Source of the DNA: Candidatus Saccharimonadota bacterium
GTDB lineage: Bacteria > Bacillota_I > Bacilli_A > Mycoplasmatales > Hepatoplasmataceae
NCBI GenBank assembly: GCA_027925325.1
Contig: AP027133.1
Location: 210,001-242,000 of the forward strand
Direction: 5' to 3'
DNA length: 32,000 bases
How positions within the stretch are numbered: the first letter of the stretch is position 1; each line of letters begins with the position of its first letter. The position numbers and the translations under genes were made by a program. A model generated the notes under the pieces. That model was not told the origin of the DNA and ran no database searches. It worked only from the letters and a program-made list of their open reading frames with translations. Shown one piece after another: positions 4,803 through 32,000 of this stretch.

Positions 4803-4828
4803 AAAAAAACAGAGAATTATCTCTCTGT
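4803..4828 (-). terminator. Rho-independent terminator candidate downstream of SDR paralog 1
   Basis: 7-bp stem ACAGAGA/TCTCTGT (4809-4815 and 4822-4828) with a 6-nt loop. On the minus strand it is followed by a T6 run (A6 at 4803-4808). A T-rich run also follows on the plus strand, so it may act in both directions. Confidence 0.5.
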
Positions 4829-4896
4829 TTTTGTCTTTTTATTATTTATTAAAAAATTTAAATTAATATATTAATTTATAATTTTATTTTGCTAAA

Positions 4897-5655
4897 TTAG
4901 ACTCAAATAATATCTTGATATTTTCCATCGGTGAAATTTAATTTATTATCTTTTACAATAGCTAAAATATGATCATTTTTGCATAATTGATAAGCCTCTT
5001 CTGCTAATTCTTGTGCTTGTTTACGATCTTTTTGATGTCTAATTTTTTCCTTTGTTGCACTTTCTATTTTGCTATCTTTAAAGGCAATTTGTTCAAATTC
5101 ACTCTCTGTTGCAGCTGGTGCTAATACTTTTACCTTAATTTTCTTATTTAATTTTTGCAATTGTCTTGCGACACCTTCGGTTCAAGCACTTACAAAAAAT
5201 TTAGAAGCAGAATAAGTAAGAGCAGCTGAGAAAAGATTATAACCAACGACAGATGAGACATTTATCAATTGCACATCTTTATCTAAATTATCTTTAATAA
5301 ACATCATTGATAATAAAGTTAGGGCTTTGATATTTAAATCAAGTATCTTTTCTGTTTTAGCAAGATCTGATTCTCATACCAAATTCATATCGCCCATTCC
5401 GGCATTGTTTATAAAGATTTCGATTGGATATTTTTTAATATCATTGTAAAAAGTTATCACATTTTGGGAATTAGATAAATCACATTTGTAAACGATAACT
5501 TTTACCTTATATTTATTTTCAAGATCGTCTTTTAATTTATTTAATAATTGCTCTCTTCTTGCCACAATTATTAAATTATGTCCCTCTTTTGCAAACTTTT
5601 CTGCTAAAGCTTTTCCGATTCCGGCACTCGCACCGGTAATTAATGTATATTTCAT
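4897..5655 (-). CDS. Short-chain dehydrogenase/reductase (classical SDR), paralog 1 (252 aa if started at ATG 5655)
   Basis: Joins track ORFs 5374-5655 and 4903-5160 through TGA=Trp codons. Motifs: TGASAGIGKA (TGxxxGxG), NNAG, and S...YSASK (YxxxK). It ends ...DIIWV with TAA at 4897-4899. There is no canonical SD upstream, and it is in frame with the upstream ORF (see findings). Confidence 0.85.
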
Positions 5656-5673
5656 ATTTTTTTCACTTTCACA

Positions 5674-6225
5674 TCATATCTTGATTTTTTTACGATTAAA
5701 ATCAGATTCAATTATATTTTTAAATAATTTAAATTTATTTACGGTAATTGGTTCTTCTGAATTTAAATAACAGGTATGATTATTTATTTCAATTTTTTTT
5801 AAACTAGTTCTCTCTTTTGAAGAAATTTGATATATTACAACCTTATGATTACTTTTGGTATTAGGATCATTTATATAGTAAGGTCTTATCTTGTTTTCAG
5901 AATCCTTATATTTATAATCTAATATCTTATTATCATTTAGATAAATTATTTCTTGTTCTCTTACTTTTAAACTTGCATTTATATATTTTTTAAACTTCTT
6001 TTTTAAATTTGTAAAGTATTTTATATCATCTTTTGCAATTAAGTAATTATCATAATTTTCTCTATATTTATTTTGATCATCGATTCTTTTATATTCAATA
6101 AAATTTTGATATTTATCAGTCCAATTTCTAAATTTTTTTAAAATATCTTTATTTATTGAGTTTAAAATAAAGACCTTAAATTTTAATTCTAAAAAATTAA
6201 ATTTAGAAAAATTTTTATTTTGCAT
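5674..6225 (-). CDS. Hypothetical protein, paralog B. Its apparent stop is a TGA, so in table 4 it reads through into SDR paralog 1
   Basis: I chose ATG at 6225 (MQNKNFSKF...) by alignment with paralog A, not the TTG at 6243 used by the track. The codon at 5674-5676 is TGA, and six sense codons then lead to the SDR ATG at 5655 in the same frame. Confidence 0.6.
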   Translation of the reverse strand: MQNKNFSKFNFLELKFKVFILNSINKDILKKFRNWTDKYQNFIEYKRIDDQNKYRENYDNYLIAKDDIKYFTNLKKKFKKYINASLKVREQEIIYLNDNKILDYKYKDSENKIRPYYINDPNTKSNHKVVIYQISSKERTSLKKIEINNHTCYLNSEEPITVNKFKLFKNIIESDFNRKKIKI

Positions 6226-6233
6226 TTTAGATG

Positions 6234-6998
6234 TTAAATTCAACGGATATTATCATATTTTCCGTTTGATAATTTTAAATTGTTATCTTCAATTATGCCA
6301 AGAATTTTATCATTCTTATATAATTTATAACCTTCATTTGCTAAATCCTTTGCAGATTTAGCTCTTAATTTTTTTTGTTTTTTGTAAGCATTAATTTCTC
6401 AATGCTTATTTTTACTATGAATTAAAGCTTTTTCAATAAATTCACTTTCGGTAGTTGAGGGTGCTAATACTTTTACCTTAATTTTTTTATTTAATCGTTT
6501 TAATTGTTTTGCAACACTTTCTGTTCATGAGGCGACAAATACTTTGGAGGCAGAATAAGTAATCTCACCTGAGATAATATTATATCCTGCAGTAGAAGAA
6601 ACATTTATTAATTGCACATCTTTATCCAAATTATCTTTAATAAACATAATTGAAAGAGTTGTTAAGGCTTTGATATTTAAATCAAGCATTTTTTCAATTT
6701 TTTTAATATCAGAATTTCAAGGAAGATTTACATCACCTGATCCAGCATTATTTATAAATACTTCAATATCATATTCTTTAGTTTTCGCATAAAATTTTTG
6801 TACTTCATCTGAATCTAAGAGATCAACCGTATAAATAATAATATCAACATTATATTTATCTTTTAATTCTCCCTTAATAATTTTTAATAAATTAGTTCTT
6901 CTCGCTGCTAATATTAAATTGTGCCCTTCTTTTGCAAACTTTTCTGCTAACGCCTTTCCAATTCCAGAACTTGCTCCGGTAATTAAAACATATTTCAT
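6234..6998 (-). CDS. Short-chain dehydrogenase/reductase, paralog 2 (254 aa)
   Basis: I hand-translated it continuously from ATG 6998 with TGA=Trp. Motifs: TGASSGIGKA, NNAG, YSASK. It ends ...NIRWI with TAA at 6234-6236. Strong SD (AAAGGAG) upstream. Confidence 0.87.
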
Positions 6999-7050
6999 TT
7001 CTAATCTCCTTTCCCTAAATAAATTATATTATTATTTATAAATTAATTAA

Positions 7051-7076
7051 AAAGCAGTGAATTAATTCACTGCTTT
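7051..7076 (-). terminator. Perfect 26-nt palindrome / hairpin between SDR paralogs 3 and 2
   Basis: AAAGCAGTGAATT/AATTCACTGCTTT is self-complementary and flanked by T/A-rich runs on both strands. It lies 250 nt downstream of the SDR3 stop and 52 nt upstream of the SDR2 start. Confidence 0.4.
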
Positions 7077-7325
7077 CATTTTTAGAATTTTAAATCACAA
7101 GCTAGATTTCTAAAATAAATGACCTATTTTTTTTAAACATATTTAGCAATAATTATATACTTATAATTTATTTGTCTTTATAAAATTATCTCGCATAAAT
7201 AGAGAAAGTTATTACTAATATTTAATTTTATATTAAAATTAATATCCTTTTAAAATTGATTTTTAGGGTTGTGTATGATCTCCAAATCTAATATTATTTT
7301 TATTTATTTTATTTTTATAAATATT

Positions 7326-8087
7326 TTAAAACATATTAAATCATTTATTTTTTAATTTAAATTTATTTGTAAATGGATTTACAATTCCAATTACTTTATC
7401 GCTTTGATATAACTGGTATGTAAAATAAGCTAATTCATCTGCATTTTTGAAACGACTTTCGGTTCTTTTTTTTGCTTCTGAAACATCCTTTTCATTTAGT
7501 TTTGTTTTTTTGAAAGCACGTTCAAAAAATTCTGTTTTTGTTGGGCCAGGAGCTAATATTTTTACTTTTAATTTAGCCTTTTCTTGTTTTAGGAATCTTG
7601 CAATTCCTTCACTAAATGTTGAAACATAGAATTTAGTAGAAGAATATGCTATTCCATTTGATCAAATAAAATATCCTGCTGTTGAAGCTACATTTATGAT
7701 TTGTGTTTCTTTATTTAAGTTATCTTTAATAAAAAGTAATGATAAGTCGGTTAGGGTTTTGATATTTAGATCTAACATTTTATTGATCTTTAAAATATCA
7801 CTTTCTCAAGGTTTATTAATGTCACCAAATCCGGCATTATTTATCAAAACCTCAAGATCATATTTTTTAATTTGATCATAAAAATCGAAAACATTATCAG
7901 TAATTGTTAAATCATAAACAAAAACCAATACTTTAACTTCAAATTTTTTTTCAAGATCTTTTTTTAATTCATTTAATAATTCTTCTCGTCTTGCGACAAT
8001 AATGATATTGTGTCCTTTTGCAGCAAAATAAGTTGCTATTGCCTTTCCGATTCCAGAACTAGCGCCAGTTACTACTGTATATTTCAT
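7326..8087 (-). CDS. Short-chain dehydrogenase/reductase, paralog 3 (253 aa)
   Basis: N-terminus from track ORF 7806-8087 (TGASSGIGKA, NNAG), extended through TGA codons. The C-terminus ...KFKLKNKWFNMF ends with TAA at 7326-7328. SD AGGAG upstream. Plus-strand ORF 7447-7629 is an antisense shadow. Confidence 0.85.
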
Positions 8088-8158: not shown

Positions 8159-8599
8159 TTAACAATTCGTAGGATTATTTTTAGTATTATTTTTTTCCTC
8201 ATTAATATCTTTAATCTGATTTAAAATTCTTATTATTTCTAATTTATCTTTAATAATTTCTTTTTTAATAATTTCCTCTTGCGGACTTCTATTTTGTAAT
8301 TTTTCTATATTATTATAAATTTCTTCATTTACATTTTCTTTAATTTGCTTTAAAATTTTTCTTCTATCTTCAGATAATTCATTTGCTTTTTCTCCTAATT
8401 CATTTGCTTCTTTTCCTAATTTATTTGCTTTTATTCCTAAACCTAAAGACACAGAAGCAATTATTAAAGAAATAATACTTGAAATTAATTGAACTCATTT
8501 TTGATCAATATAAATTGTTAATAATATCAAAAGAAAAACTAAGATAAGAAAAATTATTACAATTCATTTTCATTTTTTAATAAAATTAATTATTTTCAT
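8159..8599 (-). CDS. Small membrane protein: two predicted TM helices plus a coiled-coil C-terminal half (146 aa)
   Basis: ATG at 8599, with three TGA=Trp codons before track ORF 8159-8452. N-terminus: MKIINFIKKWKWIVIIFLILVFLLILLTIYIDQKWVQLISSIISLIIASVSLGLG. This is followed by the tandem KANKLGKEANELGEKANELSED and a heptad-like K/E/I-rich sequence. TAA at 8159-8161. It starts 28 nt after the upstream gene's stop. Confidence 0.6.
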
Positions 8600-8627: not shown

Positions 8628-9401
8628 TTATCTTATAAATTTATTAAAAAAAGGTTCGTTATATGTGAAATAATTTATGATATCTTTATTATCTATTGGT
8701 GTATGCTTTGAATTAGGTTTATATACTTTTTTTCACGGATCAGTTTTATGACTTTCTTCAATTAAATCGTTTGTTGTGAAATTTCTTAGAACAAGATAGG
8801 CAATTTTGAAGATATTTAAAAAATTTTGCTCATTTTTTAATATTAAATTATCATCAATATCATTATTTGTATATCCATTATCCTTTTTATAAATATTACT
8901 TAAAACAGGACCATTATCAAATGCTCATCATTTTGCTTCTTGATTTTTTTCATTTTTTGAATAAATTTTTTTAAAAATTTCATTTGGATTTTCAAAAATT
9001 CCATAATCTTTGTTTTTGTTTATGGCATAAGCAATCATGAAATATATTAATTTGTGTTTTTTTATTTTATTGTATTTACCTTGTGCAAATATTTCCATTT
9101 CATTTCAAATTAGAAACAACATATTATATATTTTGCTTGATAAATTTTCTTGTTCACTTAATGATTCTTTTCTTTTTAATTTTTCATCAATTTTTCTTGG
9201 ATCAAAATTATTATTATTTTCAAAATTATTAATTAATTGATTAAATTCTTTTTTATTAGGATTTTTGAATTTTTCAAAATTTAAATATTTATTTAAATAA
9301 TCTAACTCTTTTTTTTCTAAGGTTTCACAATAATAATTTTTAATTCTATCGAATTCAATTTTTCTTATTCATGTAAAAAGTTCAATTCCTTTATTTTCCA
9401 T
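8628..9401 (-). CDS. Panacea/DUF4065 (SocA/GepA-like) domain protein with a ~115 aa N-terminal extension (257 aa)
   Basis: Absent from the track because of five in-frame TGA codons. My hand translation gives ...KKHKLIYFMIAYAINK...AKWWAFDNGPVLSNIYKK...LRNFTTNDLIEESHKTDPWKKV. This matches the DUF4065 pattern (KLxKLLYF..., AWxxGPVxxxxY, sHxxxPW). The length of 774 nt is divisible by 3, and AAAGGAAA SD lies upstream. Confidence 0.6.
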
Positions 9402-14479: not shown

Positions 14480-14763
14480 TTAATCTTCATCTTGTGGACG
14501 ATCAAGTATTTCAGACATTTTTTTGGTATTTTTTTTCATTTTAATATCAACAAATAATAAAACTAATATTAATATAATTAATATTATTAAAATCGTAATT
14601 ATTAAATATACGATATTTTTTGCAGATTGATTGTCTTCGGTTTTTATCGTTCCATTTTCAGAAATATCTAATGAATCATCTTCTACAATATCTGTAAAAC
14701 TTAAATTAATAAAATTATAGGTAGTATTTGCTTTAAGATTATTAACCTTAAAACTAAATTGAT
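14480..14763 (-). pseudogene. Orphan 3' fragment of the RCC1 surface-protein gene: last beta-module, TM anchor and short cytoplasmic tail, with no start codon
   Basis: Reads ...QFSFKVNNLKANTTYNFINLSFTDIVEDDSLDISENGTIKTEDNQSAKNIVYLIITILIILIILILVLLFVDIKMKKNTKKMSEILDRPQDED, with TAA at 14480-14482. On the minus strand the frame only opens at 14791 and has no initiator. Its upstream partner sequence is present in inverted orientation. Confidence 0.6.
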
Positions 14764-14912
14764 CAAGAAAATGGAACTGTGCAATATCAATTTAGTTTTA
14801 AGGTTAATAATCTTAAAGCAAATACTACCTATAATTTTATTAATTTAAGTTTTACAGATATTGTAGAAGATGATTCATTAGATATTTCTGAAAATGGAAC
14901 GATAAAAACCGA
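14637..14912. repeat. Perfect 127-bp inverted repeat (14637-14763 vs 14786-14912) with a 22-bp spacer
   Basis: I compared the reverse complement base by base and the arms are identical. The match stops at both ends (14764 c vs 14785 t; 14636 vs 14913). Confidence 0.85.
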
Positions 14913-15808
14913 TTCTAATTCTCAACAATTTATTCTTAATGCTGATTATCAAGTTGAATTGCAAAATTTAAATGCAGAAACAAATTATAAAATAGATTCT
15001 ATCAATTATTTTTATCAAAATGGAACTTATAAATATACAATTGATCAAAATATAGTAACTTTTAAAACAGAACCAGCAACACCAGAAATAAAAGCAGATA
15101 CAATTGCCTTAGTTGATAATTCTTTACAAAAAAATCAATTTCAGTATACAATTGAAATTGATAATTTAAAAGCAAATTCTGATAAGACAAATTTTACACA
15201 ATATGATGTAAATGAAGGAATTTGACTTGTTGATCAAGATAATAATTACTATCATTCAACATTTATCGATGCAAAAATAATTTCAAGCGGAACGATAAAT
15301 GGAACACAAAATTATCAATTAACATTTTTACAAAATGATCTTATAAGTGGACAAACTTATCAATTTAATGGAATAAGTATTACCGATCCAAATACATCAA
15401 CAGATGATATTATTAATTTTTCTGATCCATTTATCATTACAACTACAATAATTGATAAAAATTTTGTTAGTGATAGTTTTATTATTGATCAATCCTCAAT
15501 TACAAAAAATTCATTTACTTATACCGTAGCAATTGATAATTTAATTTTAATAAATGAAGATGAGAAAAATCCACAATTTGAAAATTTTAATCTGGATGAT
15601 GGATTATATTTAATCGATAATAATGATGATAGTTACAGTTCAAATTACATCGAGGGAAGTGCTATCAAACTAAGTGAGAACCAAGAAAATGGAACTGTGC
15701 AATATCAATTTAGTTTTAAGGTTAATAATCTTAAAGCAAATACTACCTATAATTTTATTAATTTAAGTTTTACAGATATTGTAGAAGATGATTCATTAGA
15801 TATTTCTG
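14764..15808 (+). pseudogene. Internal body of the RCC1 surface-protein gene (beta-sandwich modules) lying on the opposite strand to its 5' and 3' parts, with no start codon or signal peptide
   Basis: The plus-strand frame (track ORF 14779-15225, extended through TGA) opens at 14758 without an ATG. It encodes ...SNSQQFILNADYQVELQNLNAETNYKIDSINYFYQNGTYKYTIDQNIVTFK...QFSFKVNNLKANTTYNFINLSFTDIVEDDSLDIS. The 1045-bp segment begins and ends with the same 127-mer (14764-14890 = 15682-15808), so the unit is 918 bp = 306 codons. Confidence 0.6.
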
Positions 15809-15935
15809 TGTATATTTATAAGTTCCATTTTGATAAAAATAATTGATAGAATCTATTTTATAATTTGTTTCTGCATTTAAATTTTGCAATTCAACTTGAT
15901 AATCAGCATTAAGAATAAATTGTTGAGAATTAGAA
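15682..15935. repeat. Two abutting 127-bp repeat copies: 15682-15808 (direct copy of 14764-14890) and 15809-15935 (reverse complement of 14913-15039)
   Basis: Aligned by eye, both are identical over exactly 127 nt, with mismatches immediately outside each block. Confidence 0.85.
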
Positions 15936-17764
15936 ACATTATTATCGATATTTGTATAATTTAATTCTATTTTCCTTTGATCATCTGTGTAATTATTAAT
16001 ATTAAAATCAGCGCTATTTTGATCTAAATTTAAAGCAAAGGTAGCTGTTTCTTCCGCAGCGGAAACAAAATTATAACTAGAAATTAAATAATCTGTTGTA
16101 ATTTGTGGTTGATTTAATTCAAATTCATCTTCATTAATTATTATTTTAGTGAAATTATAACTTTGACCATACATAATATTATTTACTTGATAATAATATT
16201 GATCATTATTTATATTAGATTTATCTGTAATAAAAGTTGTTGTATAACTAACATCATTCTGATCAATTAAAATTACTTCAGGAGATTGATTTATGATATC
16301 TTTATAATCATTTAAAATAATATTTAATTCAATATTATTATTATCTTCGTAATAAAATTCTGTTTTATTAATAAAGAAATCAAAAGAAGAATCAATTAAT
16401 GTTGGAACATGTTTATCAACTGTACTATTATCACCAAGTTGTCCATCGGCATTATGTCCCCACATATACAAGGTATCGGCATATCCATCTAAATCAATAT
16501 CAATCGTAATACCACTATGAAGTGAACCTAAACTTAAATCAATAACATTCCCATCTCAATCACTCTCTTGTGGGGTTATTTTTGTTGGAACATGTTTATC
16601 GCTTGTATTATTATCACCAATTTGACCCTCACTATTATCTCCTCACACATATAAAGTATCAGCATATCCATCTAAATCTTCATCAATCGTAACACCGCTA
16701 TCATTTGAACCTAAATCTAAATCAATAATATCTCCACCTCAATTACTTTGTCCCTGCGGAGTTATTTTTGTTGGAACATCTTTATTAATTGTACTATCAT
16801 CACCAAGTTTTCCATCACTATTATCTCCTCACATATACAAAGTATCAGCATATCCATCTAAATCTTCATCAATTGTAATCCCACTATGATTTCCGCTTAA
16901 ACTTAAATCAATAATATCTCCATTTCAATCACTTTGCCCTTGTGGAGTTATTTTTGTCGGAGTATCTCTATTAAATACAGTATTATCACCAATTTGACCC
17001 TCATTATTATCTCCTCACATATATAATGTATCGGCATATCCATCTAAATTGGTATCAATCGTAACACCGCTATGACTTCCACTTAAACTTAAATCAATAA
17101 TATTTCCACTTCAATCACTTTGTCCTTGTGGAGTTATTTTTGTTGGAACATCTTTATTAATTGTACTATCATCACCAAGTTGTCCACTACCATTATATCC
17201 TCACATATATAATGTATCGGCATATCCATCTAAATCGGTATCAACTGTAGCACCACTATTATTTGTACCTAAATCTAAATCAATAATATCTCCACCTCAA
17301 TCACTTTGCCCTTGTGGAGTTATTTTTGTCGGAACATGTTTATCGCTTGTACTATTATCACCAAGTTGGCCATAATTATTTCTTCCTCACATATATAATG
17401 TATCGGCATATCCATCTAAATCGGTATCAATTGTAACGCCACTATGATATGATCCTAAACTTAAATCAATAACATTCCCACCTCAATCACTTTGCCCTTG
17501 TAGGGTTATTTTTGTTGGAACATGTTTATCACTTGTACTATTGTCACCAATTTGTCCATATTGATTATCTCCTCACATATAAAGAGTATCTGCATAAAGA
17601 TCATTATCGGTATCAACTGTAGCACCACTATTATTTCACCATGTTTTAAGTGACAGAATTTTATCGTTTGTACTTAATTCTTTATTTTTTAAGTGATTTG
17701 GTTTATTTAAACCTATGCTTAAAAATAAAAAAGGTATCAAAAGAAGTGAAAATATTTTTTTCAT
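15770..17764 (-). CDS. Signal peptide + 7-bladed RCC1-like propeller surface protein, 5' portion. The ORF ends 39 nt past the rearrangement junction (664 aa as assembled)
   Basis: ATG at 17764 (MKKIFSLLLIPFLFLSIGLNK...). Seven repeats of the type DGYADTLYMWGxNxxGQ[IL]GDNST..K.VPTKITPQGQSDWGG.IIDL, with Trp mostly encoded by TGA. It joins track ORF 15770-16471. The last 12 residues (QKYLMNHLLQYL) are antisense of the 127-bp repeat. Confidence 0.75.
16400..17640 (-). repeat. Tandem ~180-nt (60-aa) coding repeats = seven RCC1 blades with high mutual DNA identity
   Basis: Strings such as gcatatccatctaaatc and cctcacatata recur with a ~180-nt period. Confidence 0.7.
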
Positions 17765-20488: not shown

Positions 20489-21244
20489 TTATTTATCATT
20501 TTTTTTCGATGATTTAGAAGGATGAGAAATTTTTAAATATTTTGATCTTTTAATTCTTAAAATTCTTAATTCTTCGGTATTTAAATCTTCAATCTCAATA
20601 TTTTCTTCTTCAATCTTTGGATTTTTTTGATCTTTTGAAATTGAATCATTTTGTTGTTGATTTATATTTTGTTTTTTTTCTTCTAAATTAATATCATCTT
20701 TTTGTTCTGCTTTTTTATCTTTTTTAATTTTTGCTTTTTTTTCTTTTTGATTATATTTAATAAAAATAGAAATAGATTTTGCATTTCTTTTTTTTGCTTC
20801 TTCTATAATTTCTGCAATTGTTTTATTATTATCAATTATCTTTTCGTTTACCTTTGTAATATTAATATCTTTATCTTTATCTTTATTATTTTCTATTTTG
20901 CTTGCTTTAGAATCTATTTTTATTTCTTCTTTTTTAGCTTCGCTTTGATAATTATTAATTTTTACAAGCGGAAATCTTAATTTTTTATATTTTTTTTGTG
21001 TTGTCTTTTTTGCACTTTTTTTAAGATTTGTTTTTTTCTTGTCATCTGCAATTGCTTTTTTTGTGTTATTCTTTTTAATTTTTATTATCTTTTTTTGCGG
21101 ATCTTTTTTATTTTCTTCATAATTAATGACAAGCGAAACTGATTTTATATTTTTCTTATTCGTTTCTTTTACAACTTTTGAAATTTTTTTATTACTATCA
21201 ATAAGATTATCGATAATAAAAGTTTTTTTTGATTTACTTTTCAT
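20489..21244 (-). CDS. Lys-rich hypothetical protein (251 aa) with two copies of a ~40-aa module
   Basis: Uninterrupted ORF with a true ATG. The module appears at the N-terminus (FIIDNLIDSNKKISKVVKETNKKNIKSVSLVINYEE) and in the C-terminal half (KIIDNNKTIAEIIEEAKKRNAKSISIFIKYNQKE). No TM segment or signal peptide. In such AT-rich DNA a Lys-rich ORF carries weaker coding evidence. Confidence 0.55.
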   Translation of the reverse strand: MKSKSKKTFIIDNLIDSNKKISKVVKETNKKNIKSVSLVINYEENKKDPQKKIIKIKKNNTKKAIADDKKKTNLKKSAKKTTQKKYKKLRFPLVKINNYQSEAKKEEIKIDSKASKIENNKDKDKDINITKVNEKIIDNNKTIAEIIEEAKKRNAKSISIFIKYNQKEKKAKIKKDKKAEQKDDINLEEKKQNINQQQNDSISKDQKNPKIEEENIEIEDLNTEELRILRIKRSKYLKISHPSKSSKKNDK

Positions 21245-21442: not shown

Positions 21443-24400
21443 TTAATTTTTTTTTTTATTGATTTTTTCGATATCTTTTTTAATATCTTTATTTTCTTTA
21501 TTAATCTCTTTTACTATTTTTGATAATTCTGAGATCTCTGATGTTAATTTTTCTGTTTTATTAGGTCCTCTAGTTACTCTTTTTACTCTTACTACTGGTT
21601 TAGAATTACTACTTGAATTATTTAATTTTGTAATATTATTTTTAATATCTTTATTTTCTTTATTAATCTCTTTTACTATTTTTGATAATTCTGAGATCTC
21701 TGATGTTAATTTTCTTGTTTCGTTACTTCTTTTATTAACTTTAGGAACAGATCTGGTACTATTTGAAGTATTTAATTTTTTTACTATTTTTGATAACTCT
21801 AAAACCTCTTCTGTTAATTTTTCTGTTTTATTAGGTTTTTTAGCTGTCTTTTTTTTCTTATTTGCAATATTATTTTGTTCTGAATTATTTATTTCTTCAA
21901 TATTAATTTTAATATCTCTATTTTCTTCATCTATTTTTCTTACTATTTTTGATAATTCTGAGATTTCTTCAGTTAATTTTTTTGTATCATCGGGTTTCTT
22001 GCTAGTTGCTTTTCTTGTTTTTCTTTTTCTAGTTGCCGGTGCTTTTTTTTCAACTACAGGTTGTTCTTTTTGTTTACTTAAATCATCTACTTTTTTAGAT
22101 AATTCTAAAATTTCTGATGTTAATTTTTCAGTATATTTTGAATTATCTGGATTAACTTCTTTTGCTTCTTTTTCTGGTTGAGTTTGTTCAAGGTTGTAAA
22201 CTGTTAAAGGTTGAGGTTCTTCTTCTTTTGTTTCATTTTTAATTTCCTCTTTCTTTTCTTCTGTAATTTTTTCCTTCTTTTTCTTTTTTTCTTTTTCAGA
22301 ATCATTTTGTGACAATAAAATAAGTAACAATATTAAGATTAATAATAATATTATTATAATAATTAAAATTCATCATCATGGAAAACAGCAATCATCATCG
22401 CTATTACTTACATCCGTATGAATTATTCCATCATCTATATCTTCAAATGGTCCATTTTGATTAAATCCTATGTAAATAAATTGATAGTCAGTATCTGGTT
22501 TTAGTCCATTAACTTCAAATGTAAATCTATAAATTACAGTAGTATCTTCTGTACCATCACTTATATATTTTCCACTATTATTTACATAAGTTGAACTATA
22601 ATTAGTATCATTAATATCTTTTAAATATAAATCTGAATATGGATCAAAATTATAAAAAGTTGGATTTGCTTTTACATCTTGTAATTGAGAATTTTCTAAT
22701 AATAAATTATCAACTTCAATTGTATATTGAAAAGATGTATCGGTGATTGTATTTTCAAGAATTGTAAATGTGTAACCAAGAATTATCGGATCTATATATC
22801 CATCATCTGGGATAATAACATCTAGTGATGGATTTATAGGAATAATATTAGAATCATCTGGTCCTGTTGGTTGATCGAAACTGATTCCATTAAATTGATA
22901 TTCCTCATCATCTTTAAGTCCACTTATTTTATAAGTCATTAAATAATTATAAGCACCATTATAATCACTATTTTCATAAAATTCTTGCGTAATAAAAGTT
23001 GCTTTATAAATATCTCCATTACTATCAACTAATCACATTCCATCATTTACATCATAATTTGTAAAATTTGTTTCATCGATGTTAGGAATTAAATTGTCTA
23101 TTTCAACTGTAAACTGAAAAGAATTTGAAGTTATTGTATTTTCAATTACTTCGATTGTTTCGGTTTGAATTATTGCATCAACACTTTTTGTTTCAAATTT
23201 TTTAGATTCTTGTTCAATTTGATATTTATAATTTCCATCTTCATAAAAATACTGAATTGAATCTATTTGATAATTTGTTTCAACATATAAATCTGTTAAT
23301 TCAATTTCTTTTAATGCATCTATTGTAAATTCTTTATTATAAGAAATATCTCTATCAAGATCGGTGTAATTTACTTTTGTTTTTAATTGATCGCTTGTAT
23401 AGTCACTAAAAGTAACATTATTATTTTGATTTAAATCTAATGTAATTGTCGCTGTTTCTTCAGTTACTGATTCAATAGAATAATCAGAAATAATATAATC
23501 AGTTGTGAATCCCTCATCATCTAAAGGAAAGGATTCTTCATTAATTATTATTTCTTTAAAGTAATAATTTGTTCCTCTTTCAATTCCATTTACTTGATAG
23601 TAATATTGGTCGTTAGGAATATCTGAATTTGAAGAAATAAAGGTTGTTGTATAAGTATTATCTTCACTATCTATTAATAAAACAGTAGGAGGTTGATTGA
23701 TAAGATTATTGTAATCATATAATTTTAGATCTATATATAACTCATCATCATTAAAAATAAAATTTAAATCAGCAATAGAAAACGAATTATCAGTATATAT
23801 AGGGATAAAATAAAGTTGATCAGGATTATTATTATTATTTCCATCGGCTATTTGCCCATATGTATCACTTCCACATGCGTAAAAACTATCAACAATTCCA
23901 TCTCCATTATTATCGGCGATAATACCAGTACTACTAAATCCGTTTGATAATGAATAAATAGATCCAAATCAAGATGATTGATTTTCTGGATAAACAATTG
24001 TTGGTCTAGAAACATCATTTGTTGTACCTACACCAATTTGTCCATTTGAGTTTCCGCCTCACATGTAAACAGTGTCACCTAAATTATCTGAATTTGAATC
24101 AATTATTACTCCAGAAGTGTAACTACCTTTTTCAAATTGTAAAATACTTCCTCCTCAATCACCTGATTGAGGAGTAATCATTATTGGATAATATCTAATA
24201 ATTTGTGTCCCATCACCAATTTGTCCATAATTATTTTGCCCTCAACTATATATTGAATCGCCTACTCCATCTAGATCAGTATCAATTAATACACCTGAAT
24301 TAAAAAATCCTAATGTTAAATCAATTATATCTCCATTTCAATTACCGCTCTGTGGACTAATAATTGTAGGATATTGGAGATATTCATAAGATGGTCCTTT

Positions 24401-25195
24401 TCCAATTTCGCCATATGTATTATCGCCTCACATATACAAGGTATCGGCAAATCCATTTAAATCAGTATCAACACTAACTCCACCAAAACGAGAACCTAAT
24501 TTTAAATCAATTATATTTCCATTTCAATCATTACTTTCGGGAGTGATAATTTCTGGATATAAAATTTTTGTTTCTTCTTTTGGTGATATTTCATAACTTG
24601 TATTTTCACCTCAACCGTATATTAGATCACCGAATCCATCATTATTAGTATCTATTAAAATGGCTGTATTTGCATACATTAATGATAAAGTTATAATATT
24701 TCCGCCTCAATCACTTTGCCCTTGTGGATTAATGATTTGTGGAGTTTCAACAAAACCTGTTGTTTCTCCATTTCCCATTTCTCCACGATAATTACTTCCT
24801 CACATGTAAAGAGTATCGGCATATCCATCTAAATCAGTATCAACTGTAGCTCCACTAAATAATTGAGCTATTTCCAAATTAATTACATTTCCGCCTCAAT
24901 CACTTTGCCCTTGTGGTGTAATTTCTACTGGTGAAAATTTATCAGTAGAAGTTCCATCACCAATTTGATAATTATTATTTTGCCCCCACATATAGATGGT
25001 ATCTCCATTTTGATCACCATCAGTATCGACAATTGCTCCATTTGTATTTCCATCTGCTGAAAATTCTAAATCTGTTACCGTTGCATTTTCTAAATTTGCA
25101 AAATTTTTTGTTTTTTTAAAATTTGAATTTCCATAACCATACCCAAATGTGAGTAATATTGGAAAAATAATAATTGCAATAATGAATTTTTTCAT
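21443..25195 (-). CDS. Type I membrane protein: signal peptide, 7-bladed RCC1-like propeller, beta-sandwich-like modules, one TM helix, and a ~290-aa Lys/Glu-rich cytoplasmic repeat tail (1250 aa)
   Basis: Track ORFs 24896-25195, 22376-22939 and 21443-22330 share one frame (the offsets are multiples of 3). I hand-translated the gaps without meeting TAA or TAG. Seven YxWGxNxxGQIG-type blades. The TM region is ...DDDCCFPWWWILIIIIILLLILILLLILL. The tail has five copies of KLT[SE]EI[SL]ELSK[IK]V. Confidence 0.8.
21470..22130 (-). repeat. Five coding repeats in the cytoplasmic tail (KTEKLTSEISELSKIVKEINKENKDIKNNI type)
   Basis: The last two copies are nearly identical at DNA level (about 21480-21570 vs 21645-21735). 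Earlier copies are more diverged. Confidence 0.65.
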
Positions 25196-25500: not shown

Positions 25501-25691
25501 AATGATTAAGAATTAAAAAGATAAAAATTAATCAATTTATTATAAAAAATTTAATTAATTGATAATTTTACCTTTAGAGTTAATAGATAGTGTTAAAATT
25601 TTGCTTAATTAAATTAAGTAATAGCGTTTTTATTTAAATGTAAATTTATATATATTTGAATAAAAATAATATATTTGGAATAAATAAAATT

Positions 25692-28600
25692 ATGGAAAAA
25701 AAAATTAAATTAAATTTTGATAAAAATAAAATTGTTAAGAATGATGCAAAAAAAGAAAAAGAAGAAATTTTGTCATTTATAACTGATTCTGCACATGTAC
25801 AGACTATAAATCCTTTAAAAGAAGGAGGAGATTCTCAACAAGAAGTAAATGAAAAAATTTTGCAAAATATTAACTCTATTGTAGATGGTAGTATTCCTGT
25901 AAAAGTTAGTACTTCATCAATAAATGCAAATGATTCTATTAATGAGAATGGTTTAACACAAAAGGAAGCAAATGAAAATAGTAAACAAAATTTTGATCTT
26001 TTGACATCTAAAATAGATGGATTAAATTCTGATATTGTAGATATCAACAATAAAATTGATAATTTTGTTTTTAATGCACCTACTTCAGATGTTTCAATTT
26101 CTGATCCTATATTAGAAGGTGGATCTACCCAAGAGGAAGTTAATAAAAATAATAAACAAAATTTTGATCTTTTAAATGATCAAATTGATAATTTTAATAA
26201 TGGTACTTATCCAATTAGAACCACAACATCATTTACTAATACTATAAATTCTAATTTAGAAAATGGTACAACACAAGAAGAGGTTAATAAAAATGATAAA
26301 AAACTTATTGATTTAATTGTTAACGGTGATACTTTAATTAAAACTTCTTCTTCTTATGTTGATACAATTAATTCTCTTCAAGAAGGAGGATCTAAACAAG
26401 AAGAAGTAAATAAAAATAATAAACAAAAAATTAGTGATATCAATTCTTTGATTATAGAAATGGATGATAAAATCTCTGATTTTAAAATCGAAGCTGATAC
26501 ATCTAAAATTAGTTCAACCGATGTCACATTGGAAGGTGGAACAACACAACAAGAAATTAATGTAAAGGGTGAGGTTAATTTAAGTCAAATAAATTCTGAA
26601 ATTTCTGAAATTAACGATAAAATTTCTTGTCTTGATTGTTTTGATGGAAATATTGATACATCATTAGTTAGTACATCTGATAAAGTTTTGGAAGGAGGAA
26701 TAAACCAAAGGGAAGTAAATGAAGTAAATAAGAAAAATCTTGAAAATATAAATATTTTGGTAGATGATATAGATTGTAAGATTGATGATCTTGAGATAAA
26801 AACTACTACTTCAAATGTTATCGCAGGCGATGGCTTTTTTGAGGGTGGTCCAACACAACAAGAGATAAATGAATCTAATAAAGAAAGTATATTTACTTTA
26901 AATTCCGAAATAATTTCAATAAATTCTGAAATTTCTGATCTTAGCGATAAAATTGATTGTTTTGAATGTGATTGCAATGATGATTCTGATGATAATAATG
27001 ATGTTATTGATACTAAATCTCTTAATGCTGTTGATTCTGATTTAGAAGGTGGAACAACACAACAAGAAATCAATCAAAATATGAAAGAATCGATCATTAA
27101 TCTTATAAATGATGGAGTTAAACCTGGAAATACTTCAACTGTTCCTACAATTAATCTTATTTTAGAAAATGGCGCAACACAAGAAGAAGTAAATAAAAAC
27201 ACCAAACAAGCAATCGACGGAATTAGTGATCAAATTGATGGAATTTCAATAGAAAATGATACTTCAGCTGTTTCAACTTTTAATGCAATTTTAGAAAATG
27301 GTGTAACACAAGAAGCGGTAAACAAAAACACCAAACAAGCAATTGATGATATCGTCGATCAAATTGATGGACTTCCAACAGATTTTGATACTTCATCTGT
27401 TACTACTGTTAATTCTATTTTAGAAAATGGTGCAATACAAGAAAATGTTAATAAAAACACAAAAGATGCAATCGATGATATTAATGATAAAATTGATAAT
27501 TTTGAGTGTAATTGTATTACTTCTTCTATTACAACAGTTGATGAAATTTTAGAAAATGGCGCAACACAAGAAATAGTAAATAAAAACACCAAGCAAGCAA
27601 TCGATGATATTAATGAGGAAATTGATGGACTTCCAACATCTGTTGCGACCTCTTCTACTATTACAGTTGATGAAACTTTAGAAAATGGAAAAACACAAGA
27701 AATAGTAAATAAAAACACCAAACAAGCAATTAATGATATTGGCGATCAAATTGATGGACTTCCAACAGATATTGCTACTTCATCTGTTGCAACAGTTGAT
27801 GAAACTTTAGAAAATGGTGCAACACAAGAAATAGTAAATAAAAGTAATAAGCAAGCTTTTGATGAGATAAGTTATGAAATTAGTGAACTTCCAACAGATA
27901 TTATTACCTCATCTGTTAAAACTTCTGATACGGCATTAGAAAATGGTACAACGCAAGAAGAAGTAAATAAAAATACTAAGCAAGCAATTGATGATATTAA
28001 TGAGGAAATTGATTCACTTCCAACAGATATTGATACACCAGCTATTACTACATTCAATGCAATTTTAGAAAATGGTATAACACAGGAAGCAGTAAATAAA
28101 AATACCAAACAAGCAATCGACGGTATTGATGATCAAATTGGTGAATTATTAGATAAGAATACATCATTTGTTGAAACTGTTAATGCAACTCTAGAAAATG
28201 GTACAACACAAGAAATAGTAAATAAAAACACCAAACAAGCAATTGATGATATTAATGAGGAAATTGATGGACTTCCAACATCTGTTGCGACCTCTTCTAC
28301 TATTACAGTTGATGAAACTTTAGAAAATGGTGCAACGCAAGAAATAGTAAATAAAAACACCAAACAAGCAATTGATGATATTGGCAATCAAATTGACGAA
28401 TTATTAGATAATGACACATCATCTGTTACAACAGTTGATGAAATTTTAGAAAATGGTCCAACACAAGAAGAAGTAAATAAAAAAACCAAACAAGCAATTG
28501 ATGATATTAATGAGGAAATTGATGGACTTCCAACATCTATTGCTACTTCTTCTACTATTACAGTTGATGAAACTTTAGAAAATGGTCCAACACAAGAAAT

Positions 28601-30641
28601 AGTAAATGAAAACACCAAACAAGCAATTGATGATATCGGCAATCAAATTGATGAATTATTAGATAATGACACATCATCTGTTACAACAGTTGATCAAACT
28701 TTAGAAAATGGTCCAACACAAGAAATAGTAAATGAAAACACCAAACAAGCAATCGATGATATCGGCAATCAAATTGATGAATTATTAGATAATGACACAT
28801 CATCTGTTACAACAGTTGATGAAATTTTAGAAAATGGTCCAACACAAGAAATAGTAAATGAAAACACCAAACAAGCAATTGACGATATTAACAATCAATT
28901 AGATGGACTTCCAACAGATATCGTAACTCCTTCTGTTGCAACAGTTGATGAAACTTTAGAAAATGGTGCAACACAAGAAATAGTAAATAAAAACACCAAA
29001 CAAGCAATCGATGATATCGGTGATCAAATTGATAATATTGGGAATTTTTTAACTTCAAATGTTATTGCAGTGGATGATTTATTAGAGGGCGGAGAAATCC
29101 AACAAATCATTAATCAAGATAATAAAAATGTTATTGATTTAATTAATTCTGAAATTATTGATATAAATGAGATAATTAACAATTTTTCTTTAAATCTTAC
29201 ATCTTTTGATTTAACAACAGTTGATGAAACTTTAGAAAATGGTGCAACACAAGAAATAGTAAATGAAAACACCAAACAAGCAATTGATGATATTGGTAAT
29301 CAAATTGATGGACTTCCTACAACAATGATTACCTCATCTGTTATAAGTGTTGATATAACTTTAGAAAATGGCACAACACAGGAAGAAATCAATCAAAATA
29401 ACAAAAATTCGATTGATACTTTAAATCAAGAGATTAGTGATCTTATTGATAGTGGTATTCCTTCAATTGATACATCTTTGCTTAATACTGCTGATGAAGC
29501 TTTAGAAAATGGTACAACACAACAAGAAATTAATCAAAATAACAAAAATTCTCTTGATGATTTGAATTCTGATTTAGTATCAGCTAATGATCAAATTGCT
29601 GATATTATCGATGGTACAGCTGGAGTTAAAATAAATACTAATTATATTTTAGAAGAAAGCACAATACAAAAAATTTTAGAAGATGGTGCAACTCAACAAG
29701 AAATCAATCAAAATAACAAAAATTCTCTTGATGATTTAAATTCTGATTTTGCAAACTTAGATACTGAAATTGATAATATTAACGAGAGAATTGAAAATAT
29801 TAATAGAGATTTTAATACTGCAGATGTAGAATCAATTAATTCTAATGATGAATCTGGATCAGTTCAACAAGAAATTAATCAAAATAACAAAAATTCTCTT
29901 GATGATTTGAATTCTGATTTAGTATCAGCGAATGATCAAATTGCTGATATTATCGATGGTACAATACAAGTTGTAAATAAAACTTCAAATGTTATTCCAA
30001 TTAATCCTGATTTAGAAGGTGGCTCTACACAGAGTGAAGTTAATCAAAATAATAAAAATTCTCTTGATGATTTAAATTCCGATGTAACTACAATAGATTC
30101 TGATATTGATGATATTAATGAAAAAATAGATAGCATTGTTATTACTAAAACGACTCCAAATGTTATTACTGTTGATAGTAATTTAGAAGGTGGAAATACA
30201 CAACAAATAGTTAATGAAACTATACAAAGCGATCTTCAAACTATAGTTTCTAATATCTCTGAAATTATTAATGGTTCAACAACAATAAATATTCAAACAT
30301 CATCTGTTATTCCTGAGGATGTTAGTTTGGAAGGAGGAATAAATCAAGAAGAAATAAATAAAAATAATACTAGAAAAATTTATGATTTACGTTGTGCAAT
30401 TGATGATATTGTACATGGTGTAATTATAATTCCTATTATTACATCAGATGTTAATACGGTTGATGCAATTTTGGAAAATGGTGAAACACAAAGAGAAATT
30501 AATGAAAATAAAAGAAAAATGATAAATTTAATAAATGTTAAAATTAGTAATTTAATTATTACAATAAATACTCTTCAAACAAATATTTCATTTTTATCTT
30601 CTTGTAGTGATTGTAGACTACCTCAAAAAACAATTGCTTAA
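25692..30641 (+). CDS. Giant acidic repeat protein, ~34 repeats of 43-50 aa with core LE[NG]GxTQ[EQ]x[VI]NxNxK (1649 aa). No signal peptide, TM segment or Trp
   Basis: One uninterrupted ORF. I chose ATG 25692 (MEKKIKLNFDKNKI) over the track's TTG 25656 because the paralog starts MEKQTKIDFDKYKI. I counted 34 core motifs in the translation. All minus-strand ORFs inside it are antisense shadows of the repeats. Confidence 0.85.
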   Translation: MEKKIKLNFDKNKIVKNDAKKEKEEILSFITDSAHVQTINPLKEGGDSQQEVNEKILQNINSIVDGSIPVKVSTSSINANDSINENGLTQKEANENSKQNFDLLTSKIDGLNSDIVDINNKIDNFVFNAPTSDVSISDPILEGGSTQEEVNKNNKQNFDLLNDQIDNFNNGTYPIRTTTSFTNTINSNLENGTTQEEVNKNDKKLIDLIVNGDTLIKTSSSYVDTINSLQEGGSKQEEVNKNNKQKISDINSLIIEMDDKISDFKIEADTSKISSTDVTLEGGTTQQEINVKGEVNLSQINSEISEINDKISCLDCFDGNIDTSLVSTSDKVLEGGINQREVNEVNKKNLENINILVDDIDCKIDDLEIKTTTSNVIAGDGFFEGGPTQQEINESNKESIFTLNSEIISINSEISDLSDKIDCFECDCNDDSDDNNDVIDTKSLNAVDSDLEGGTTQQEINQNMKESIINLINDGVKPGNTSTVPTINLILENGATQEEVNKNTKQAIDGISDQIDGISIENDTSAVSTFNAILENGVTQEAVNKNTKQAIDDIVDQIDGLPTDFDTSSVTTVNSILENGAIQENVNKNTKDAIDDINDKIDNFECNCITSSITTVDEILENGATQEIVNKNTKQAIDDINEEIDGLPTSVATSSTITVDETLENGKTQEIVNKNTKQAINDIGDQIDGLPTDIATSSVATVDETLENGATQEIVNKSNKQAFDEISYEISELPTDIITSSVKTSDTALENGTTQEEVNKNTKQAIDDINEEIDSLPTDIDTPAITTFNAILENGITQEAVNKNTKQAIDGIDDQIGELLDKNTSFVETVNATLENGTTQEIVNKNTKQAIDDINEEIDGLPTSVATSSTITVDETLENGATQEIVNKNTKQAIDDIGNQIDELLDNDTSSVTTVDEILENGPTQEEVNKKTKQAIDDINEEIDGLPTSIATSSTITVDETLENGPTQEIVNENTKQAIDDIGNQIDELLDNDTSSVTTVDQTLENGPTQEIVNENTKQAIDDIGNQIDELLDNDTSSVTTVDEILENGPTQEIVNENTKQAIDDINNQLDGLPTDIVTPSVATVDETLENGATQEIVNKNTKQAIDDIGDQIDNIGNFLTSNVIAVDDLLEGGEIQQIINQDNKNVIDLINSEIIDINEIINNFSLNLTSFDLTTVDETLENGATQEIVNENTKQAIDDIGNQIDGLPTTMITSSVISVDITLENGTTQEEINQNNKNSIDTLNQEISDLIDSGIPSIDTSLLNTADEALENGTTQQEINQNNKNSLDDLNSDLVSANDQIADIIDGTAGVKINTNYILEESTIQKILEDGATQQEINQNNKNSLDDLNSDFANLDTEIDNINERIENINRDFNTADVESINSNDESGSVQQEINQNNKNSLDDLNSDLVSANDQIADIIDGTIQVVNKTSNVIPINPDLEGGSTQSEVNQNNKNSLDDLNSDVTTIDSDIDDINEKIDSIVITKTTPNVITVDSNLEGGNTQQIVNETIQSDLQTIVSNISEIINGSTTINIQTSSVIPEDVSLEGGINQEEINKNNTRKIYDLRCAIDDIVHGVIIIPIITSDVNTVDAILENGETQREINENKRKMINLINVKISNLIITINTLQTNISFLSSCSDCRLPQKTIA
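25790..30520 (+). repeat. Coding tandem-repeat array. The central units (about 27100-29300) are 129-nt (43-aa) copies at very high identity, with a 255-nt two-unit super-period
   Basis: Example: DETLENGPTQEIVNENTKQAIDDIGNQIDELLDNDTSSVTTVD is repeated almost verbatim at about 28560-28690 and 28690-28820. The two back-to-back 255-nt antisense ORFs in the track (28133-28387 and 28388-28642) reflect the super-period. Confidence 0.85.
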
Positions 30642-30988: not shown

Positions 30989-32000
30989 ATGGAAAAGCAA
31001 ACAAAAATAGATTTTGATAAATATAAAATTAATAGCGAAAATAATAAATATAGAATTAATATAAATAATTTAGAGCAAAAATTAAAAAGTTCAACATCTA
31101 TGACTGATTCTGCACACGTACAGACTATAAATCCTGTAACTGAAGGCGGAGGTTTTCAACAAGAAGTTAACGAAAATATTATAGAAGGTCTTTCTTCACT
31201 TATTGGCGGGGAAGTTCCTTTAGATATTAATACATCTGCTGTTAATACTGTTGATGAAACTAATGAAGGTGGATCAACACAAGAAAATGTTAATAAAAAT
31301 AATAAAACAATTATTGATAATTTAAATTCTGATATTACAACAATAAATTCTGATATTGATGATTTAAATGAAAAAATTGATAATTTTTCTATAGATGTAG
31401 TTAGTTCAGAAATTAGTTCTGTTAATTCTTCTTTAGAAGGTGGATCAACACAAGAAGCAGTTAATAAAAATAATAAACAAAATATTGATGATCTAAATAA
31501 TGATATTAATGATCTTATTAACGGAAATACACAAATAAAAATTAATTCTTCATCTATTGATACATTAACTCCTTCTTTAGAAAATGGTGCAACACAAGAA
31601 GAAGTAAATAAAAATAATAAGCAACTTATTGATTCAATTATCAATGGTGAAAATCCAGCAAAAACAATTTCCTCATCTATTGATACAGAAAATTCTTCAT
31701 TAGAAAATGGTACAACACAAGAAGAAGTAAATAAAAACACAAAAGAAACAATTGATAATATTAATGATCAATTAGATAGTTTTGATGAAAGAATCAACTC
31801 TCTTGATGCAGGAATAAATACATCAAAAGTAAATACAACAAATTATTCATTAGAAGGCGGATCAACACAACAAGAAATTAATATAAAAAATAAAATTGTT
31901 TTTGATTCAATAAATTCTGAAATAGAAGATATTAATAGCAAGATTGATTGTATAGATGAAGGAATCGATACTTCTATAATTAATTCTATTGATTCTGTAT
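30989..32000 (+). CDS. Second giant repeat protein, paralog of 25692-30641; 5' part only, continues beyond the window
   Basis: Hand translation from ATG 30989 is open to the window end (337 codons). It shares the N-terminal TDSAHVQTINP..EGG motif and the LE[NG]G[SAT]TQEE[VI]NKNNK repeats. It is missing from the track only because no stop codon is reached. Confidence 0.8.
   Translation, partial: MEKQTKIDFDKYKINSENNKYRININNLEQKLKSSTSMTDSAHVQTINPVTEGGGFQQEVNENIIEGLSSLIGGEVPLDINTSAVNTVDETNEGGSTQENVNKNNKTIIDNLNSDITTINSDIDDLNEKIDNFSIDVVSSEISSVNSSLEGGSTQEAVNKNNKQNIDDLNNDINDLINGNTQIKINSSSIDTLTPSLENGATQEEVNKNNKQLIDSIINGENPAKTISSSIDTENSSLENGTTQEEVNKNTKETIDNINDQLDSFDERINSLDAGINTSKVNTTNYSLEGGSTQQEINIKNKIVFDSINSEIEDINSKIDCIDEGIDTSIINSIDSV

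Follow-up and report, generated by a model that had tools for sequence, protein, structure and literature searches.

What does an extracellular symbiont do with a membrane protein that appears to carry a eukaryote-like propeller outside the cell and a long repetitive tail inside it? The question is raised by a gene at positions 21443–25195 on the reverse strand of a 32,000-nucleotide (nt) stretch of contig AP027133.1 (hereafter the window, to which all coordinates refer), which comes from the genome of Candidatus Hepatoplasma scabrum Ps-JP, a symbiont of the woodlouse midgut gland. Hepatoplasma lives extracellularly and bears stalk-like appendages (PMC4536667; PMC5033963), with which it fastens itself to the midgut gland's brush border (PMC5033963). 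It is uncultured, and the RCC1-like family is a published candidate for interaction with its host. The gene described here is an intact member of an already reported family of Hepatoplasma RCC1-like surface proteins, and it encodes a variant in which an RCC1-like propeller, a beta-sandwich stalk, and a single transmembrane helix are followed by a long cytoplasmic repeat tail, as predicted from hydropathy, charge, and structural models.

Reading frame and genetic code

When translated with genetic code table 4, in which TGA specifies Trp, the reverse strand at 21443–25195 is one reading frame of 1250 codons with 15 in-frame TGA codons, no in-frame TAA or TAG, and a sole stop at its end. Under table 11, the same DNA is split into three open reading frames (ORFs; 24896–25195, 22376–22939, and 21443–22330). 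A first-pass annotation of the window had proposed that reading TGA as Trp fuses these three ORFs into a 1250-amino acid (a.a.) protein, and had named a TAA or TAG overlooked between 22940 and 24895 as the finding that would overturn it; the table 4 frame bears out the fusion and contains no such codon. Trp is encoded 15 times by TGA and once by TGG, and the majority of these TGA codons supply the Trp that is conserved in the blade motifs (YMWG, DWGG). The window's housekeeping genes, namely arcA and those for ornithine carbamoyltransferase, an arcD-like permease, aldehyde dehydrogenase, and short-chain dehydrogenases (SDRs), also contain 3–11 in-frame TGA codons each and almost no TGG, which indicates that TGA as Trp is the code of this organism.

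The product of the adjacent gene at 20489–21244 is 100% identical to BDV03500.1 (HPPSJP_2210), and a 664-a.a. ORF at 15770–17764, part of an RCC1 paralog in the same window, matches BDV03497.1 (HPPSJP_2180) exactly. From this gene order and the consecutive accession numbers, the tail-bearing gene is HPPSJP_2220 (BDV03501.1). Its closest relatives are three orthologs (P0001–P0003), which are 60–64% identical over 95% of the length, 64% being the best database match; P0001 is HCTKY_2330. Twelve paralogs (P0004–P0015) are 33–46% identical over 56–75% of the length. Phase variation through homopolymer slippage was considered and rejected, as no run exceeds A8 apart from an A11 at the terminus, and neither of these is near the transmembrane segment. 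The DNA is AT-rich, and a scan of it for promoters and terminators did no better than one of shuffled sequence.

Relation to the published family

The Hepatoplasma genomes have previously been searched for eukaryote-like proteins (Kawato et al., 2024; PMC10928387), and H. crinochetorum Tokyo2021 was reported there to have seven RCC1-like proteins, H. scabrum Ps-JP ten, with HPPSJP_2220, HPPSJP_2180, and HCTKY_2330 all entered as RCC1-like in Table S5. In the same study, a ColabFold model of the paralog HCTKY_2170 (BDV02923.1) showed a seven-blade propeller and, after it, four Ig-like (immunoglobulin-like) folds; the RCC1 likeness was judged to lie at the level of the fold, and a role in host-symbiont interaction was proposed (PMC10928387). 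The tail-bearing protein belongs to this RCC1-like/Ig-like family by homology and by its Table S5 entry, and its sequence is collinear with the paralogs. It thus shares with the published family the genome, the propeller with four Ig-like folds, and the suggested role. The first-pass statement that RCC1-type propellers are not a characterized class of Mollicutes surface proteins does not hold, since both the family and HPPSJP_2220 itself are already in that paper; within the literature searched, it is the only report connecting RCC1 with Mollicutes. The accompanying idea of an adhesin or receptor, on the other hand, agrees with the published proposal and suits the attached lifestyle of the symbiont (PMC5033963).

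What is new is descriptive. The main text of Kawato et al. (PMC10928387) does not contain the transmembrane anchor, the long repeat tail, the Asp-rich hairpins, or the Lys-rich neighbor of HPPSJP_2220, and the modeled paralog HCTKY_2170 stops a few residues past its transmembrane segment, whereas HPPSJP_2220 continues into a long tail. The gene and the family are therefore known, and the tail-bearing variant, its fixed Lys-rich neighbor, and the Asp-rich hairpins are the added details. Related proteins with a propeller, beta modules, and a transmembrane segment (P0017, P0018, P0020, and P0022) were also observed as tandem paralogs on low-GC symbiont contigs (L006 and L007) within two very large, apparently host assemblies (GCA_040777445.1 and GCA_040777365.1). 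The family accordingly extends beyond the named Hepatoplasma species, since these contigs carry relatives of it.

Signal sequence, propeller, stalk, and membrane anchor

The protein begins with a signal peptide or signal anchor, MKKFIIAIIIFPILLTFGYG (25136–25195, reverse strand; a.a. 1–20), in which hydropathy peaks in the windows starting at a.a. 1–5 and which is kept in the orthologs. There is no Cys within a.a. 1–40, and thus no lipobox Cys, so that a Mollicutes lipoprotein was ruled out. Hydropathy reveals only two hydrophobic segments, a.a. 1–20 and approximately a.a. 935–965. The second contains the single transmembrane helix, with a hydropathy maximum of 4.13 at a.a. 943 and a predicted local distance difference test (pLDDT) score of about 90 for the modeled helix; together with the juxtamembrane motif DDDCCFPWWW it occupies a.a. 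~931–963 (22307–22405, reverse strand). The net charge is −117 for the ectodomain and +23 for the tail, and under the positive-inside rule this places the tail in the cytoplasm. Signal sequence, one transmembrane segment, charge bias, and predicted helix are together those of a type I single-pass protein, the topology that had been assigned at first pass. The juxtamembrane motif itself (22379–22405, reverse strand), with two Cys and three Trp on the extracellular side, is confined to the tail-bearing orthologs, in the form DDCCFPxWWW, and is not present in the paralogs.

The seven-bladed RCC1-like beta-propeller spans a.a. ~40–458 (23822–25078, reverse strand). It has seven [YF]x[WC]G motifs spaced about 62 a.a. 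apart, at a.a. 68, 130, 193, 254, 316, 377, and 439. In Pfam, RCC1 (PF00415) is matched with an E-value of 5.6e–27 (94.5 bits against a cut-off of 21.7) and PF13540 with 30.3 bits (cut-off 22), so that both profiles suggested at first pass for verifying the RCC1 blades lie above threshold; the whole-domain family PF25390 scores 107 bits, under its cut-off of 150, and the paralog reaches 172. A sequence search of the Protein Data Bank with the propeller returned RCC1-like domains only (HERC2 including RLD3, UVR8, HERC1, RPGR, and WBSCR16). For the structure of the ectodomain, an AlphaFold2 (AF2) model of the ortholog P0002 (60% identical) was built from a 20-sequence family alignment. This model has a mean pLDDT of 77.5, with the propeller mostly at 90 or above and 28 strands at a.a. 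41–455. Its closest Foldseek match was UVR8, with a target template modeling (TM) score of 0.91 and an E-value of 1.6e–27, followed by the HERC2 RCC1-like domains (RLDs), RPGR, and RCC1; target TM scores across the four are 0.7–0.9. The seven tandem repeats, within the 50–70 a.a. of RCC1 repeats, and the seven-bladed propeller of the P0002 model are those of an RCC1 domain.

Between the propeller and the membrane lies a stalk of four predicted beta-sandwich (Ig/FN3-like) domains at a.a. ~459–930 (22406–23821, reverse strand). In the P0002 model these are four blocks of 7–8 strands (a.a. 459–936), mostly with pLDDT above 80. The last two are internal duplicates (SFQFTVEIDNL.../SFQYTIEVDNL...), and the recurring beta modules that had been pointed out in the first pass were all found (SFQFTVEIDNL, SFQYTIEVDNL, YQFNGISF, and YQFIYIGF). 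Pfam and NCBIfam searches of the stalk returned nothing above threshold, and similarity to fn3 appeared only below it (E-value 0.0017). Among the orthologs, the propeller is the best-conserved region (~75% identity) and the membrane-proximal stalk domain the least (~50%), a pattern that fits a conserved binding head.

Asp-rich blade hairpins

In each blade, a hairpin of the pattern D-x-[DN]-x-[DN]-G-x-x-D directly precedes the YxWG strand (within 23822–25078, reverse strand, and within 16330–17640, reverse strand, for the paralog). Compared with HERC2 and UVR8, this hairpin is a four-residue insertion. The strict form, Dx[DN]xDGxxD, is found in 4 of 7 blades of the tail-bearing protein and in 6 of 7 blades of the paralog, where composition predicts 0.09–0.28. 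Each Hepatoplasma family protein has 3–7 copies of the pattern (6–7 in most), and it also occurs in P0022 and twice in P0018; among the bacterial RCC1 proteins retrieved at greater distance, 96 in number, none contains it. Rigden et al. (2011; PMC3123361) described a "calcium blade" motif, Dx[DN]xDG, in integrin, PilY1, rhamnogalacturonan lyase, and a fungal lectin. The tail-bearing protein resembles these in placing the motif in a propeller-blade hairpin of an extracellular protein, but RCC1-type blades are not mentioned in that study, and here only four of the seven blades are strict. Judging from the motif alone, the Asp-rich hairpins may bind Ca2+.

Cytoplasmic repeat tail

The tail (a.a. 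964–1250; 21446–22306, reverse strand) starts with a Lys/Glu-rich juxtamembrane stretch, which is followed by five heptad helices separated by basic, disordered linkers. Its 285 a.a. comprise 23% Lys and 15% Glu, and five KLTxE[IV]xELSK repeats begin at a.a. 1024, 1073, 1126, 1162, and 1216, consistent with the long Lys/Glu-rich tail with five repeats of the earlier annotation. The structure of the tail was predicted with AF2 from the protein's own a.a. 943–1250, a region free of TGA, and a four-sequence alignment. The model contains the transmembrane helix and five separate helices with pLDDT values of 85–96, joined by linkers below 50. On the reverse strand, the helices correspond to 22061–22132 (R1), 21878–21985 (R2), 21761–21826 (R3), 21611–21718 (R4), and 21446–21556 (R5). 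Positions a and d are hydrophobic in 71–73% of cases, against 4–13% elsewhere, over 3–5 heptads per repeat, and the long repeats have an Asn at one a position. By sequence, the repeats thus have the at least three heptads with hydrophobic a/d positions that define a coiled coil. Matches of the tail to coiled-coil families (LPP, COMP, and Dad4) were all below threshold, and nothing in Pfam or NCBIfam rose above it.

Across the 15 repeats of four orthologs, the consensus is T-x-K-L-T-x-E-I-x-E-L-S-K-I-V-x-x-I-x-x-E-N-x-x-I-K, in which E5, E8, L9, and S10 are invariant in 15 of 15. Synonymous codons within the motif differ between species, and a motif that is nearly invariant despite such differences points to selection on the peptide. 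The linkers (TRKRKTRKATSKK, KKKKTAKKPNK, and VRVKRVTRGPNK) are basic and poorly conserved. A basic region with zipper of the bZIP type was considered for these linkers and helices and rejected, because a Pro and an N-cap (KKPNKTE-KLT, RGPNKTE-KLT) part the basic stretch from the helix and the linkers are predicted to be disordered. Copy number varies: five in Ps-JP, four in H. crinochetorum Tokyo2021 and on a metagenome contig (L009), and three in strain Ps and in a Logan assembly. R4 and R5 share 72 identical nucleotides, which suggests a fifth copy of recent origin or one that has undergone homogenization.

The tail is not a family trait, as the paralogs terminate a few residues after the transmembrane segment and the long tail is confined to one ortholog group. 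When 1.84 billion representative proteins were searched exhaustively with phmmer, the tail matched P0002, a fragment of an ortholog, and two repetitive proteins unrelated to it, and nothing else. In a scan of genome contigs the tail patterns gave no confirmed match; a scan with the ortholog alignment recovered only the Ps strain (L002) and unrelated RCC1 genes, its back-translated patterns having TGG for Trp and so missing TGA. Two metagenome scans with DNA patterns for the tail gave no match and then two chance matches in MurF-like genes.

Comparison with known systems

One comparison is with the eukaryotic RCC1-like domains (UVR8, the HERC2 RLDs, RPGR, and RCC1; PF00415/PF25390), with which the protein shares seven repeats detectable in sequence and the fold, at the TM scores obtained with the P0002 model. 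In contrast to these, the Hepatoplasma domain is predicted to be extracellular, is part of a bacterial membrane protein, and has a blade hairpin that is four residues longer and rich in Asp. Guanine nucleotide exchange on Ran would not be expected of an extracellular bacterial domain, and there is no sign of it or of photoreceptor or ubiquitin-ligase function. RCC1 effectors of the Legionella LegG1/PieG type are translocated into host cells, where they act on Ran. These likewise place RCC1 repeats in a host-associated bacterium; however, the Hepatoplasma protein would be the membrane-anchored ectodomain of an extracellular symbiont, and nothing in it implies such a secretion system. Bacterial surface proteins that combine RCC1 with Fn3, Big, T9SS, InlB B-repeat, or SLH modules (P0016–P0120) similarly have an extracellular RCC1 propeller beside beta-sandwich domains, but they have sorting modules for the cell wall or the outer membrane as anchors, have the Asp-rich hairpin in 0 of 96 cases, and lack a cytoplasmic repeat tail.

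The integrin alpha subunit offers an analogy only. It too has a seven-blade head with Dx[DN]xDG loops, a beta-sandwich leg, one transmembrane segment, and a cytoplasmic tail, which in the Hepatoplasma protein could likewise couple to components within the cell. On the other hand, the blades of the Hepatoplasma protein are of the RCC1 and not the FG-GAP type, there is no known beta-subunit partner, and the tail is far longer and repetitive. No Pfam match to FG-GAP (PF01839) or Int_alpha was obtained at E ≤ 0.01. Membership in the integrin alpha/FG-GAP family was rejected on the absence of FG-GAP repeats and on the best structural matches, all of which are RCC1-like.

The Lys-rich neighbor

Immediately downstream of the tail-bearing gene lies HPPSJP_2210 (20489–21244, reverse strand), a 251-a.a. 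product which had been noted at first pass as Lys-rich, and indeed contains 27% Lys, with a net charge of +34. A Lys-rich gene follows the tail-bearing gene in 5 of 5 loci: the window, L001, L002, L009, and L008 (partial). These neighbors are 251–290 a.a. long and have a conserved C-terminal DLNTEELRI. HPPSJP_2210 matched no family in Pfam or NCBIfam and no structure. Within it, a small conserved module (..IIDxLIxSNxKISK....KKNIKSVSLxINY) occurs twice.

Proposed function and alternatives

We prefer a reading in which the protein contributes to the symbiont's attachment, either to the brush border of the host or to a host or luminal ligand. The stalk would hold the propeller off the wall-less cell as a ligand-binding head, which would carry a ring of Asp-rich hairpins, possibly Ca2+-binding. 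Inside the cell, the tail, with its 3–5 short helices of coiled-coil type (T-x-K-L-T-x-E-I-x-E-L-S-K-I-V), would act as a multivalent docking or self-association array, by which the protein would be either clustered in the membrane or held to a partner inside the cell; HPPSJP_2210 is a candidate for this partner or for a co-factor. Attachment to the brush border fits an extracellular symbiont that attaches by means of stalk-like appendages, and for the tail, docking or self-association is favored because the polar positions of the helices are invariant and their hydrophobic stripe is narrow. As a whole, the reading as a host-attachment protein that is clustered, or tethered within the cell, by its tail has, in our estimate, roughly even chances of being correct; the specific mechanism for the tail, docking or self-association, is put forward tentatively and is rather doubtful on its own.

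Several points weigh against this reading. The case for expression, surface exposure, and binding is a computational one, and RCC1-like propellers serve no single function, which bears on the proposed ligand-binding role. The structural evidence for the ectodomain comes from the ~60% identical ortholog P0002 and not from the Ps-JP protein. The AF2 model of the tail, a monomer from a four-sequence alignment, shows no tertiary packing of the helices (predicted TM score 0.19), which leaves self-association conjectural. The tail (+23) and the Lys-rich neighbor (+34) are both strongly basic, and simple electrostatic pairing between them is therefore disfavored. Lastly, if the signal peptide were uncleaved, the protein would be anchored at both ends.

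The conservation data also bear on whether the protein has a specific ligand at all. It could be a redundant, fast-evolving surface decoration (a coat, a decoy, or a shield in phage or host defense), with a tail that is an inconsequential, lineage-specific expansion of low complexity. The family is indeed a multigene one, with 7–10 members per genome (PMC10928387) and tandem arrays in related symbionts, and the tail varies in repeat number, has one recently duplicated copy, and yielded no homologs outside Hepatoplasma in the phmmer and DNA-pattern searches. Yet the propeller is the most conserved region among orthologs, the tail motif is maintained across species despite synonymous change, and the Lys-rich gene remains syntenic in five loci; this explanation is judged improbable. 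The same invariance bears on a second possibility, in which the basic linkers and amphipathic helices of the tail, instead of binding a protein partner, would rest against the anionic inner leaflet, shaping the membrane and helping narrow, stalk-like protrusions to form or to be stabilized. Hepatoplasma does form stalks, the linkers are rich in Lys and Arg, the tail has a net charge of +23, and the hydrophobic moments of the best 18-residue windows are 0.53–0.64. However, the hydrophobic stripe is narrow (confined to a/d, with 4–13% elsewhere), mean hydrophobicity is only −0.12 to 0.28, and there are no aromatics, all of which a coiled coil fits better; moreover, the polar T, E, E, S, and K are invariant although lipid binding would not call for such invariance. 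We consider a membrane-shaping tail more improbable still.

The first-pass idea that the tail connects to a cytoskeleton-like element or to nucleic acid is speculative, as the sequence itself reveals five heptad-patterned helices with basic, disordered linkers between them and no more. If nucleic acid were the target of the basic linkers, they would, perhaps with help from the Lys-rich neighbor, hold nucleoid DNA, RNA, or ribosomes at the membrane where the surface protein sits. In keeping with this, the tail and the neighbor are both highly positive, the linkers are disordered, and P0002 has been automatically annotated as "ATPase involved in DNA repair". That label, however, was rejected as a coiled-coil artefact, which goes back to a weak resemblance to SMC (24 bits, where the cut-off is 729), and no nucleic-acid-binding family matches either the tail-bearing or the Lys-rich protein. 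It is also the linkers that are least conserved and the acidic or neutral helices that are conserved, and the Pro and N-cap between basic stretch and helix are unlike bZIP, so this function is very unlikely. An extension of the preferred attachment reading is an integrin-like outside-in linker, in which a possibly Ca2+-dependent propeller would bind the isopod brush border while the tail and the Lys-rich protein nucleate or anchor a scaffold within the stalk. This more elaborate scheme has only a slim chance of being right; if it were, the locus would for the first time allow stalk building in Hepatoplasma to be approached at the molecular level. With a repeated intracellular helix motif and a fixed neighbor, the ortholog group appears built to communicate across the membrane, which makes it the family member most worth experimental study.

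The scrambled paralog

The first-pass annotation had also placed a paralog at 14480–17764 on the reverse strand. An RCC1 paralog is indeed present there, but not as a continuous ORF, since it is scrambled in this assembly and its middle lies on the opposite strand; only the 664-a.a. HPPSJP_2180 is annotated. By translation, an N-terminal part of 652 codons is encoded at 15809–17764 (reverse strand), a middle of 0.77 kb at 15040–15808 (forward strand), and the C-terminus with the transmembrane segment at 14480–14658 (reverse strand). The junctions are marked by three pairs of exact 127-nt repeats (14637–14763 and 14786–14912; 14913–15039 and 15809–15935; 14764–14890 and 15682–15808); the window has no other long exact repeats. 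With the middle flipped, the result is a restored 967-a.a. ORF, collinear with HPPSJP_2360 (P0006, 71% identity) and with P0008 (55%), and the RCC1 paralog in the similar neighborhood of L009 is intact.

The largest k-mer that SPAdes accepts is 127. The contig AP027133.1 is a metagenome-assembled genome for which SPAdes 3.15.3 was run on Illumina reads alone; it is unpolished (PMC10928387). The scrambling is most likely a SPAdes misassembly at k = 127, possibly at a tandem duplication of 918 nt, given that the 14912/14913 junction keeps the reading frame. A real inversion would be the alternative, but a programmed one is unlikely, as the repeat arms are all exactly 127 nt and there is no recombinase gene nearby. 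HPPSJP_2180 in the deposited, Illumina-only genome is thus probably truncated by misassembly and not by biology, which matters to users of that record.

Other genes in the window

Divergent from the tail-bearing gene is a giant repetitive ORF (25656–30641, forward strand) of 1661 a.a. with ~43-a.a. repeats, the first of a giant-ORF cluster; the divergent arrangement is repeated in L001 and L002, and the order of giant ORFs, tail-bearing gene, and Lys-rich gene is conserved in the five loci. Clusters of giant ORFs have been described and discussed as possible adhesins (PMC10928387). A second giant repetitive ORF runs from 30989 to 32000 (forward strand) within the window, and units of ~43 a.a. 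(..TVDETLENGATQEIVNKNTKQAIDDI..) are found in both. The giant ORFs gave no convincing Pfam match.

At the other end of the window, a gene at 2366–4063 (forward strand), which adjoins ftsZ-sepF, encodes a restriction endonuclease-like protein of the GmrSD_N (DUF262) type (Pfam E-value 1.8e–24) and is likely a defense gene. Three tandem SDR paralogs follow at 4184–8087 (reverse strand). The one at 4897–6243 is fused to an N-terminal domain of ~170 a.a., which recurs as a gene of its own at 4184–4708, the two being a 74%-identical DNA repeat. A small protein with two transmembrane segments is encoded at 8159–8599 (reverse strand), with a sub-threshold match to SLATT_4 (25.8 bits against 27); it adjoins 8628–9401, the gene for a 257-a.a. 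protein that is also present in L002. Finally, a locus found at 14701–21684 of L001 and 10548–15575 of L002 is absent from the window; in L001, its two hsdS genes flank a recombinase of the phage-integrase type, which is the layout of a phase-variable hsdS shufflon.

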